64,000 nucleotides of DNA from Eledone cirrhosa (Eukaryota). Positions 4,674-63,311 of the stretch are shown piece by piece. The notes below the pieces were generated by a model that worked only from the letters and a program-made list of their open reading frames with translations, had not been told where the DNA came from and searched no databases. Location: NCBI GenBank assembly GCA_964016885.1, contig OZ024753.1:42408001-42472000 (forward strand). The letters are read 5' to 3'. Numbering within the stretch: position 1 is the first letter of the stretch; each line of letters begins with the position of its first letter. The translations under genes were made by a program, and so were the position numbers.

Positions 4674-5111
4674 TAGGAACGAGTAGGACCCCGACGGCTG
4701 AGCTCAAGCCGTTTCGACGGCTAATTCTGGACTAAATGAACATTTTTATCCTGGTACATGAATAGCCGAGCTTCTCAGGGGGTAATTCCATATATGGTAA
4801 AAGTGATTGTCACAAGGATTGGTCAAAAGTTTGTTGTTGAGACACATAATTCTATCATGGCATTTTGTGGAAGGAAGGGGTAGCTGAACTTGCCAGTAGA
4901 AGAAAGAGGAGAGGGAGTGGAGGAAACCCAAGAAGCTCGGCTATTCATGTACCAGGATAAACATTTTCATTTAGTCCAGAATTAGCCGTCGAAACGGCTT
5001 GAGCTCAGCCGTCGGGGTCCTACTCGTTCCTATTACCCACTCTACTACCCTAAGTATTGAGCACTTTAGTGCGTTATGGTCCATCTGGTTCCTTACCACA
5101 TTTCCTTCGTT
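4674..5111 (+). mobile_element. Family A element, longest copy
   Basis: Arms 4674-4775 / 4931-5032, tail 5033-5111. Hammerhead 3' half GAAACGGC-ttgagctca-GCCGTC at 4991-5013. Flanked by (TA)n. Confidence 0.8.
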
Positions 5112-5547
5112 ATATATATATATATATATATATATATATATAAACTAATCATACAAACTAGGGAATAAATGGTTTACCCAAGAGAAACCCTATAGTTTAT
5201 TTTATGTTGATTACTGACACATGGAAGAGATATTTTAATAGTTTAGGATATAATTAGAAACATGTTACAACATATATGAACAAATGATTTACAGGGCTAA
5301 AGGTATGTGTAATTTCGGAGAGTTAACTATTTACAGGAACAAATGTAGGGTTAGAAGCCAGAACCTGGTGATTGGAAAGTGAATTTATTATTGTAGCTAC
5401 ATGGCTAGCATTGGAAATATATTGGGAGTGTGTGTGTAAATTTTATGGAGTTACAGATATACATCTATGCTTGCATCTGTGTGTGTGTGTGTGTGTGTGT
5501 GTGTGTGTGTGTGTGTGTGTGTGTGTGTGTGTGTGTGTGCATAGATA

Positions 5548-5674
5548 CATGATGATTTATTTCGAATGAAACTGTTCTACTCCTGTAGAAGTCATTTCTA
5601 GATTAAACATTATGTTTACACTGTACTAATGTATTGAGTACCTTACTGTAATTACTCCCGATTGAACCCGGGAC
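5548..5674 (+). mobile_element. Diverged family B copy with decayed hammerhead
   Basis: atgatga...gaatgaaactgttctactcctgtagaagtc and tail tattgagtaccttac...gattgaacccggga align to 24329-24452. Confidence 0.7.
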
Positions 5675-5747
5675 TCTCTCTCTCTGTCTCTCTCACACAC
5701 ACACACACACACACACTCACACACACATATCTATATATACACACACG

Positions 5748-5838
5748 CAGTGTCCCTCAAAATATATACACACTTCAACAGCATTCTAATAAATATTGCC
5801 TGTACGTATAATTAAAGTGTGTATACATTTTTGGGACA
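5748..5838. mobile_element. Tc1/mariner-type MITE, degenerate
   Basis: gtgtccc...gggacac inverted ends. Internal sequence matches 32717-32806. Confidence 0.6.
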
Positions 5839-61106: not shown

Positions 61107-61306
61107 NNNNNNNNNNNNNNNNNNNNNNNNNNNNNNNNNNNNNNNNNNNNNNNNNNNNNNNNNNNNNNNNNNNNNNNNNNNNNNNNNNNNNNNNNNNNNN
61201 NNNNNNNNNNNNNNNNNNNNNNNNNNNNNNNNNNNNNNNNNNNNNNNNNNNNNNNNNNNNNNNNNNNNNNNNNNNNNNNNNNNNNNNNNNNNNNNNNNNN
61301 NNNNNN
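61107..61306. other. Assembly gap (200 N)
   Basis: Run of N. Confidence 1.
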
Positions 61307-61572
61307 GGGGGAGGGATGGTAAGAGATGGAGGGGGAATAGTAAAGGAGAGGGAGGAATGGTAAGGAGGGAATAACGGAGAAAGTTTAGACTTTGGATTTG
61401 ATGTCTGTGGAGTTGTTAGAGAGGGAAAGAGTGTGAGAGAGAGAGGGAAAGAGTGAGAGAGGGAGGGAGAGAACGAGAGAGAGAGAGAGGGAAAGAGTGA
61501 GAGAGAGATTGAGAGAGAGGAAATGTGTTTGTCAGAGAATTAGTTTCAGAGAAATAGGAAATGTGGTTGTTT

Positions 61573-62863
61573 GTGTGGTGGGGTGAGGTGTGGTGAGGTG
61601 TGGTGTGGGGTGAGGTGTGGTGTGGTTGGTGTGGGGTGAGGTGTGGTGTGGTGAGGTGTGGTGTGGTGTGGGGTGAGGTGTGGTGTGGTTGGTGTGGGGT
61701 GAGGTGTGGTGGGGTGAGGTGTGGTGTGGTGTGGGGTGAGGTGTGGTGTGGTTGGTGTGGGGTGAGGTGTGGTGAGGTGTGGTGTGGTGTGGGGTGAGGT
61801 GTGGTGTGGTTGGTGTGGGGTGAGGTGTGGTGTGGTGAGGTGTGGTGTGGTATGGGGTGAGGTGTGGTGTGGTTGGTGTGGGGTGAGGTGTGGTGGGGTG
61901 AGGTGTGGTGTGGTGTGGGGTGAGGTGTGGTGTGGTTGGTGTGGGGTGAGGTGTGGTGTGGTGAGGTGTGGTGTGGTGTGGTGTGGTGGGGTGAGGTGTG
62001 GTGTGGTGTGGGGTGAGGTGTGGTGTGGTGAGGTGTGGTGTGGTGTGGTGTGGTGGGGTGAGGTGTGGTGTGGGGTGTGGTGTGGTTGGTGTGGTGTGGT
62101 GTGGTGTGGTGAGGTGTGGTGTGGTGTGGTGTGGTGTGGTGTGGTGTGGTGTGGTGTGGTGAGGTGTGGTGTGGTGTGGTGTGGTGGGGTGAGGTGTGGT
62201 GTGGTGAGGTGTGGTGTGGTGTGGTGTGGTGGGGTGAGGTGTGGTGTGGGTGTGGTGTGTGGTGTGGTGTGGTGAGGTGTGGTGTGGTGTGGTGTGGTGT
62301 GGTGTGGGGTGTGGTGTGGTGTGGTTGGTGTTGTGTGGTGTGGAGTGGGGGTGCGGTGTGGTGGGGTGAGGTGAGGTGTGGGATGTGGTGTGGGTGTGGT
62401 GTGGTGTGGTGGTGTGGGGTGTGGTGTGGGGTGAGGTGTGGTATGGGTGTGGGTTGTGGTGTGGGATGTGGTGTGGGGTGTGGTGTGGTGTGGTGGGGTG
62501 GGGTGTGGTGTGGGGTGAGGTGTGGTATGGGTGTGGGTTGTGGTGTGGTGTGGTGAGGTGTGGTGTGGTGTGGGGTGTCGTGAGGTGGTGTTGGGTGGGG
62601 TGGTGTGTGGTGTGGTGTGGTGGGGTGAGGTGAGGTGAGGTGTGGTATGGTATGGGATGTGGGGTGTGGTGTGTGGTGTGGTGTGGTGTGGGGTGTCGTG
62701 AGGTGGGGTGTGGTGTGGTGGGGTGAGGTGCGGTGTGGGGTGAGGTGTGGGCTGAGGTGTGGTGTGGGATGAGGTGTGGTGTGGTGTGGTGGGGTGAGGT
62801 GAGGTGAGGTGTGGTGTGGTATGGGGTGGTGTGGTGTGGTGTGGTGTGGTGTGGTGTGGGGTG
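61573..62863. repeat. (GGTGT)n-based G-rich repeat with ~39-bp higher-order unit
   Basis: Direct observation. Confidence 0.95.
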
Positions 62864-63108
62864 AATGAAAGAAAGAGAGAGAGAGAAATATAGAAATACC
62901 GAGAGATTACACACACACACACATATATATATTTTAACCATCTTTTGATCTTATATTATATATACAGTATATATATATATATATATATATATATATATAT
63001 ATATGTGTGTGTTGTATATGAAACTGGTTCATGGAAGACGAAAGGAAAAGAAACGTAAGTACATAGACAGACAAAGAGACAGATATTAGAGAGATAGATA
63101 GATAGATA

Positions 63109-63311
63109 TGGGAAAAAGTATGACCCCGACGGCAGAGCTCAAGCCGTTTCGACGGCTATTTCTGGACGTGGAGCCCAGGAATAGCCGTCGAAACGGCTTG
63201 AGCTCTGCCGTCGGGGTCATACTTTTTCCCCATTTCCCACTCTACTACCCGAAGTATTGAGTACTTTGGTGCGTTATGGTCCATCTGGTTCCTCACCACA
63301 ATTCCTTCGTT
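63109..63311 (+). mobile_element. Family A element (subfamily A2)
   Basis: Arms ~63109-63165 / ~63176-63230, tail to 63311. Inserted at a TA within a (GATA)/(GACA) tract. Confidence 0.85.

Follow-up and report, generated by a model that had tools for sequence, protein, structure and literature searches.

Among the described mobile elements, those closest to the repeats considered here are the Penelope-like elements (PLEs) of the Hydra clade, which carry a C-terminal endonuclease (EN+ PLEs) and share with them the reverse transcriptase (RT) and GIY-YIG motifs, a hammerhead ribozyme in the pseudo-long terminal repeat (pLTR), (TA)n targets, an inverted truncated pLTR and a one-sided tail (Craig et al. 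2021, PMC8557442; here and below, statements on cited papers refer to their accessible portions). No hairpin in the tail or in the 5' untranslated region (UTR) is described in the accessible portion of that report, which also places PLE RTs as sister to the telomerase RT (TERT). The sole PLE assayed in vitro, Poseidon_Ac (PAc), starts copying internally at two sites bounding its tail and needs RNA located 3' of them, up to nt 172 of the open reading frame (ORF) for starts near nt 111-118, the downstream binding region being inferred only from truncations (PMC11167929). The stretch of DNA analysed here, hereafter the window, comprises 64,000 nucleotides of the Eledone cirrhosa genome (3.0 Gb and microsatellite-rich; assembly GCA_964016885.1, contig OZ024753.1, positions 42,408,001 to 42,472,000). 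In this window the original prediction had noticed a motif, YRTYGAGTDC, in the 3' tails of several repeat families, and proposed it as a shared signal for RT binding or initiation. We find that the motif forms the 3' arm of a hairpin with a bulge, placed between the hammerhead and the start codon of Hydra-clade elements, usually twice, each copy following one of the two alternative ends of the insertions. It is a real cis element of a known retrotransposon clade, undescribed as far as the literature was searched, and we read it, with a probability of about 0.62, as an RNA binding site that would position the RT to begin copying at a UA just 5' of it.

Judging from their sequence, families A, B, C and D are divergent members of this one clade rather than the otherwise unrelated families they had been taken for: A, C and D have Hydra-type ORFs and a read-through of family B begins a Hydra-type N-terminus, the only part of a B ORF seen joined to the tail. 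[quoted passage not shown] DKT replaces DKG in A, C and D, the N-terminal motif reads RWK in C and RWR in A and D, and the alignment of the three, whose RT domains are 46-47% identical, contains the CxCx5C linker, CxxC before E and CxH after N and lacks CCHH; DKT, CxCx5C, CxxC-E and N-CxH are Hydra-clade features (Craig et al. 2021, PMC8557442). A Pfam scan of three ORFs returned no significant family. The insertions have the PLE layout, i.e. an inverted truncated pLTR, a pLTR, an extension on one side and (TA)n on both sides, and 335 of 468 alignment ends join a TA run. The units, of ~3.5-4 kb (tandem periods of 3531 nt in A and ~3750-3820 nt in D), exceed the <3 kb that is a tendency of the Hydra clade but not diagnostic of it, and the tails, of ~70-100 nt, are longer than the 30-40 bp quoted for PLEs (PMC8557442). 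Predicted type I hammerhead cores lie upstream of the motif in B, C and D, and intact copies of family A combine a U3-A8 core with a predicted type I fold. The comparison of the intact tandem loci L246 and L093 with L156-L185 and the window core at 4760-4772 (minus strand) revealed a C3.A8 mismatch in all 23 cores read from the window's A subfamily; this subfamily spread widely despite the mismatch and may not need ribozyme activity. An Rfam scan of the window gave no family at the gathering threshold among the best 150 of 358 matches at E<=1, the sub-threshold matches being mostly miRNA models on AT-rich repeats and palindromes. Neither the elements nor their ribozymes (PMC4209133) nor the tail is new; the hairpin, in addition, offers a practical way to recognise the termini of Hydra-clade elements, of which this genome has many.

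The architecture of the hairpin is RCTC, a variable inner stem-loop, a 2-nt bulge on the 3' side (TT, TC or TA) and GAGY-RC. The pairing of an upstream (t/c)actc with GAGT had thus been correctly recognized as ACTC/GAGT, although incompletely, because the inner stem and the bulge also belong to the structure. When candidates were selected by the 3' arm alone in 750 kb of evenly spaced sequence, where copies are not independent of each other, an upstream arm with at least two inner pairs was present in 51 of 66 matches near (TA)n versus 10 of 80 far from it; shuffling the upstream 45 nt (500 runs) yielded a mean of 4.8 hairpins and a maximum of 11. The outer pair of the multi-copy clusters of this genome is A-T in 8, G-C in 4 and G-T in 2. 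A copy-level count of 60 G.U against 7 A.C pairs is not relied on, as the anchor maximised pairing and family B dominates.

The exact 10-mer occurs 12 times in the window (11 on the plus and one on the minus strand), whereas an order-2 Markov model of the non-microsatellite sequence predicts 1.4 (maximum 4 over 60 runs); five of the 12 are repeated copies within families A and B. All ten positions originally given as exact carry it, and 5055 holds a GAGC variant. Two further exact matches, 49688 (in a context which we take to be that of a tRNA B-box) and 7270, were rejected as members, having neither a hammerhead nor a matching tail. In a genome sample of 60 evenly spaced 10-kb stretches, 37 of 59 matches are followed by a (TA)n run at a distance of 30-100 nt, compared with 7.5% of random positions; therefore the positional enrichment, for which a control had been called for, holds genome-wide. 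The placement within about 65 nt of the 3' end is slightly too short for C and D (~70 nt), and the position is not fixed with respect to this downstream end, which lies 35-79 nt away in the genome sample. What is nearly constant instead is the offset from the hairpin to an element end 6-9 nt upstream of it.

This offset recurs at both ends of the tail. Hairpin 1 starts ~6-8 nt after the proximal end of the element, inside the known PLE tail, and copies of A, C, D, F and J that read through the tail end have a second hairpin just past it, starting 6 nt after the tail-end TA in A and C and 6-9 nt after it in D, in sequence that insertions leave uncopied. The single hairpin formerly attributed to the tails is usually one of a pair, and inserted tails lack the member marking the tail end. 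A hairpin-2 pattern derived from families A, C and D matched the genome 825 times and its reversed control not at all; families F and J were found by this pattern, so that the spacer was built in, though the agreement with their tail ends was not. Two of the 100 matches listed (L263/L289 and L286) were discarded as unrelated LINE-like coding sequence.

End mapping on read-through references placed 284 of the 335 TA-joined ends at -11 to -3 from a hairpin, 100 at hairpin 1 and 184 at hairpin 2, with none in mid-tail and 51 elsewhere. Many of the mapped loci were picked as best matches to tail queries, but of the 61 TA-joined ends contributed by the evenly spaced sample, 49 fall just before a hairpin. 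The modal offsets are -8 (A), -6 (C) and -7 (D) for hairpin 1, and -6 (A), -6 (C) and -9 (D) for hairpin 2. The tail of family D holds TATA runs and yet none of its 70 ends falls in mid-tail; thus TA microhomology alone does not choose the site. A first mapping was swamped by TA repeats in the references of B, F and J and was redone; the final B reference is devoid of the ribozyme, so the proximal ends of this family (mode -8, n=20) come from the first one, in which, as in the genome sample, one B copy ending in mid-tail was seen.

Both hairpins also occur in short non-coding tandem units of ~190-260 nt consisting of ribozyme, hairpin 1, tail, hairpin 2 and ribozyme again, which were met in family B (L292, L299, L304, L313 and L316), in family A (L256/L257) and in a C-like form (L284). 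The five B units join at nearly one point, ~15-20 nt past hairpin 2. Their organization suggests retrozyme-type derivatives, non-autonomous and with both hairpins retained.

Conservation of the hairpin extends well beyond this genome. Inspection by eye of the six Hydra consensi in the supplement of PMC8557442 revealed it in three (Hydra-2_Amil, Hydra-2_Ajap and Hydra-1_Ajap), always with a G-C outer pair, and Hydra-1_Ajap has two copies ahead of the ORF. The protein alignments of this genome retrieved nothing from viral or metagenome contigs; a homolog search gave 2049 relatives at E<=1e-30, and an alignment built from 20 of these retrieved nothing from viral contigs but yielded 90 loci in metagenome and genome contigs from marine assemblies, 80 of 286 metagenome candidates being retained; these loci form the distant set. 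The 5' flanks of this set (n=59) contain the 3' arm in 51 cases and the hairpin in 45, against 11 and none on the antisense strand, and the 3' flanks (n=55) in 33 and 29 cases against 10 and 3, while 573 coding windows gave 11 arms and one hairpin. Two hairpins 55-83 nt apart were found in 34 of the distant 5' flanks. Thirteen Hydra-type PLE loci (L397-L409) lie in bacterial genome or metagenome-assembled genome (MAG) assemblies from marine animal hosts and are most likely contaminating host DNA.

For the covariation analysis, RCTC served as anchor in 128 of 142 arm matches, pairing not being a criterion, and 72 hairpins were left after the removal of near-duplicates. Inner pair 1 of hairpin 1 is Watson-Crick in 47 of 47 (T-A in 25, C-G in 22; shuffled mean 23.6), and the next two are formed in 40 of 45 (pair 2) and 32 of 36 (pair 3), values that none of 5000 shuffles reached for any of the three. 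On a FastTree phylogeny of 62 proteins, i.e. the 59 distant loci plus A, C and D, with Hydra-type sequences only and without Neptune, Poseidon or Naiad references, all 62 have a Watson-Crick inner pair 1, for which 7 changes are needed on each side and 7 jointly; the outer pair switched a single time, from G-C to A-T, on the branch that holds the families of this genome. These coupled switches supply the compensatory stem changes whose absence would have spoken against the original prediction. They also bear on the notion that the motif is a neutral relic of common descent. All assigned families do belong to one clade, but their proteins are only ~40-55% identical and their flanks cannot be aligned, and despite this divergence the arms hardly vary and the inner pairs change in concert; the shuffles and the tree largely refute this explanation, to which we give hardly any credence.

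The distant set also bears on the position of the hairpin relative to the ends. A TA occurs at -9 to -4 of 68 of the 72 hairpins versus 35 of 72 at -16 to -11, with a peak at -6 (35 of 72), and of 18 distant copy ends, 10 are found 0-6 nt ahead of a hairpin and 8 further upstream, with none between the two hairpins. Hammerheads lie ~86-119 nt upstream, and in 29 distant elements the first base of hairpin 2 is 35-70 nt from the predicted ORF start.

Both last figures lend something to alternative explanations. With RNA processing already a feature of the region through its hammerheads, the hairpins could define RNA ends, by processing, termination or RT-independent cleavage, with the RT priming at the RNA 3' end as in long interspersed nuclear elements (LINEs); this would likewise produce two fixed ends with the hairpin left out. 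However, PAc initiates inside its template whatever the length of RNA on the 3' side (PMC11167929), and the hairpins are short, without a U-tract and without an Rfam family among the best 150 of 358 matches, which makes such a role improbable to our judgement. The location of hairpin 2 in the 5' UTR, close to the ORF start, would in turn suit a control of expression, either as an internal promoter or by repression of translation by the element's own protein in the manner of the bulged operator hairpin of MS2, the ends resulting from coincidental AT-rich priming. This would leave unexplained the equally tight link of hairpin 1 to the proximal end and the absence of ends at other TA sites inside the tail, and the distance to the ATG varies more than the distance to the end; we consider it very unlikely. 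Both explanations rank as less likely than recognition of the hairpin in DNA, which is the main rival of an RNA signal.

According to this main rival, the GIY-YIG endonuclease would recognise the hairpin in a DNA intermediate, single-stranded or extruded, such as a long cDNA or a donor copy, and cut at the TA immediately upstream of it, the two ends being resolution cuts. Craig et al. 2021 ascribe the tail to endonuclease-mediated resolution of an intermediate (PMC8557442), the endonuclease of D. virilis Penelope needed the tail for recognition and cleavage, as cited by Frangieh 2024 (PMC11167929), and a fixed distance from TA to hairpin suits a nuclease equally well. The composition of the inner pairs argues the other way: pairs 1-3 of the distant set include 8 G.U and no A.C, so that the sense strand is favoured over first-strand cDNA, although tolerance of G.T cannot separate RNA from sense-strand single-stranded DNA. 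Moreover, a variable loop (6-18 nt between the arms) and a one-sided bulge are unlike a site in double-stranded DNA, solo insertions occur in plain (TA)n, a target without the hairpin, and the two ends of PAc were mapped as RT start sites (PMC11167929). On balance we regard DNA recognition as unlikely, though still the most serious competitor of the RNA signal.

Coming back to the RNA binding site, the structure of the hairpin, its duplication, its covariation and its fixed offset to both ends are direct observations, and the way in which they could work together is our proposal. The RT/endonuclease protein would nick genomic (TA)n and bind the hairpin on its own RNA; the nicked TA 3' end would then pair with the UA located 6-9 nt 5' of the hairpin and prime cDNA synthesis away from it, and for this reason the hairpin that is used would never be copied. 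A start at hairpin 1 would yield a pLTR without tail, and a start at hairpin 2 a pLTR plus tail. Since hairpin 1 is part of the tail, one usable signal would remain in a tailed copy, whereas a tail-less insertion would lose both. In these terms, the PLE tail would be what separates two copies of a single RNA signal. The behaviour of PAc suggests, by analogy, that the hairpins are candidates for the downstream determinant in the Hydra clade, one per start. The shared signal originally proposed thus survives as a structured, end-linked one supported by position, covariation and distant conservation, with RT binding or initiation as its likeliest role, and loses its extension across unrelated families.

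Several observations weigh against this proposal. The other three of the six published Hydra consensi show a weak match or none (PMC8557442), and the in vitro precedent comes from another clade, Poseidon. Hairpin 2 of the distant set is shorter and weaker, its pair 1 being nearly invariant (604 of 5000 shuffles reach its value) and its inner pair 2 being paired in only 14 of 24. The second site of family B is well used (38 ends) and is followed only by a degenerate GCAC/GTGC stem without bulge, as read past that site in 8 of 30 loci. The offset depends on the family, from -6 to -9, with -12 or -8 in K and -11 to -19 for some B ends, and 51 of the 335 TA-joined ends fall outside both windows.

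Among better-known systems, Poseidon_Ac resembles the present elements in its two internal starts bounding the tail, its requirement for 3' RNA and its AT-rich targets; it differs in clade and in that its starts lie inside the ORF, in an AC-rich stem-loop, with no repeated structure named in the accessible text (PMC11167929), whereas here both sites belong to the 5' UTR, each with a conserved hairpin of its own downstream. The 3' tails of stringent L2-clade LINEs, such as ZfL2 and UnaL2, and of their short interspersed nuclear elements (SINEs) (PMC4176376, PMC1636434) likewise have a small stem-loop near the end which the protein of the retroelement recognises, with a conserved stem and a family-specific loop. 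The LINE stem-loop is single, lies 5' of the initiation site and is copied every time, whereas the Hydra hairpin is paired with another, lies 3' of the start and would stay uncopied when used. The position expected for a LINE-type signal was indeed not observed, each hairpin being 3' of its own end, hairpin 2 missing from tailed insertions and tail-less insertions lacking both.

Internal RNA structures that position an RT on an internal template are found in the template-flanking elements of telomerase RNA and in the epsilon signal of hepadnaviruses; the telomerase boundary element limits the end of synthesis, and epsilon templates protein priming from its bulge. The chances seem to us about even that the hairpin is a duplicated "start-here" signal which the Hydra-clade RT reads from the uncopied 3' side of an internal template in a telomerase-like manner, with the tail as spacer, and that a portable hairpin of ~25 nt, given a UA ahead of it, could make any RNA a template for internal initiation. 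The hairpin bears on how PLEs select their RNA and on why their insertions have two ends and an optional tail, and since the element covaries, is duplicated and keeps a fixed offset to both ends in many divergent families, the question can be tested with a few point mutants. With PLE RTs being the closest to telomerase, an internal template positioned by a flanking hairpin also bears on the origin of telomerase-like template use. The statement that no description was known stands, as no account of the hairpin or of its duplication was found in the literature searched, including the accessible part of a retrozyme preprint (10.64898/2026.07.22.740005); Repbase reports and most subscription papers were outside its scope.

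As to specificity, the arm is missing from the 1.5 kb downstream of ten endonuclease matches that belong to other PLE types of this genome, and among the 29 hammerhead cores followed by (TA)n in the evenly spaced sample it is present in 4 and absent from 25, the latter including other-endonuclease elements and one B copy ending at the proximal site, with the remaining cores carrying no clade assignment. In the Craig supplement (PMC8557442), four 8-mers of the arm occur 20 times; the 4 occurrences in the small Hydra file all sit in terminal hairpins, and the other 16 looked incidental. PLE families with other endonucleases and without this hairpin were met at L058, L059, L070, L077, L097 and L100, with related cores in the window at 34114 and 39092 (both minus strand). 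Several of them share a terminal motif of their own, ATGACCCTCCCMAARTATAACA followed by TA, and have two ends, and may, by this resemblance, have their own paired downstream signal.

Within the window, nine of the eleven sites of the original prediction are hairpins or damaged copies of them. Hairpin 1 of family A occurs on the plus strand at 48979..49004 (ACTC-TACT/loop/AGTA-TT-GAGT-AC; proximal end 8 nt upstream, tail end at ~49050 and then (TA)n), at 52523..52548 in an insertion consisting of inverted pLTR and tail (~52399-52594), at 63239..63264, where the minimum free energy (MFE) favours another fold, and at 5039..5064, in an insertion with inverted pLTR (4673-5110). A further copy at 2249..2274 (minus strand), with the 3' arm mutated to GAAT, had been overlooked. 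Family B has a hairpin 1 at 24395..24415 (+; ACTC-TGC/loop/GTA-TT-GAGT-AC, with G.U at inner pair 2), preceded by a hammerhead core (CTGATGA...GAAA) in its pLTR at 24329..24351 (+), and a decayed one at 5620..5641 (+). The sites 5055 and 5632 are damaged copies without compensatory changes, the first affected by an uncompensated A.C outer pair (GAGC) and the second by a 5' arm reading ACTG.

Family C has its hairpin 1 at 33707..33748 (+) and its hammerhead core at 33602..33638 (+). The fold first proposed for it, GCACTT-CGTC-GAGTGC, was dropped in favour of a longer bulged stem in which GAGT pairs with the ACTC at 33707, with an inner stem of 6 bp, a long loop and a TC bulge, in agreement with the MFE. 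An inverted C copy at 33379 (minus strand) stops 6 nt before the expected start of hairpin 1. Family D has a hairpin 1 at 36738..36759 (+; ACTC-CAA/loop/TTG-TT-GAGT-GC) and a hammerhead core at 36632..36673 (+), and a D-related subfamily contributes a 5'-truncated tail with a hairpin 1 at 30068..30090 (+; inner stem CAGA/TCTG, TC bulge). The two other sites had been listed as orphan tails. That at 26839 belongs to a loose variant, family E (26812..26848, +), with a hammerhead-like core upstream; it has lost the outer pair and kept CTC/GAG, the TT bulge and one inner pair, and neither an ORF nor a second hairpin was found for this family in four matches. That at 33137 is not a member, being the antisense of hammerhead stem II in a minus-strand family K end (33102..33190) that stops at the proximal end, before its hairpin; longer K relatives do have a hairpin variant, with a bulge of 1 nt.

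Other structures were noticed along with these copies. In family C a stem-loop CCAGC...GCTGG directly follows hairpin 1 (window 33749-33775), and its core, GCTCCAG...CTGAGGTGC, resembles the 3' end of the copepod element Hydra-1_Crog. L061 (two copies), L136 and L234 hold a family whose hairpin combines GCTC/GAGC arms with a long inner stem that covaries (for example TAATTC/GAATTA, TGATTC/GAATCA). A 400-nt repeat, 96% identical between window positions 10151-10553 and 37122-37524 (minus strand), contains a perfect-stem look-alike, ACTC-GTTT-TC-GAGT-AC, at 10195 and 37480. Finally, a long, near-perfect inverted repeat resembling a miniature inverted-repeat transposable element (MITE) spans 30537-30712 and is present also in L157, L198 and L199.

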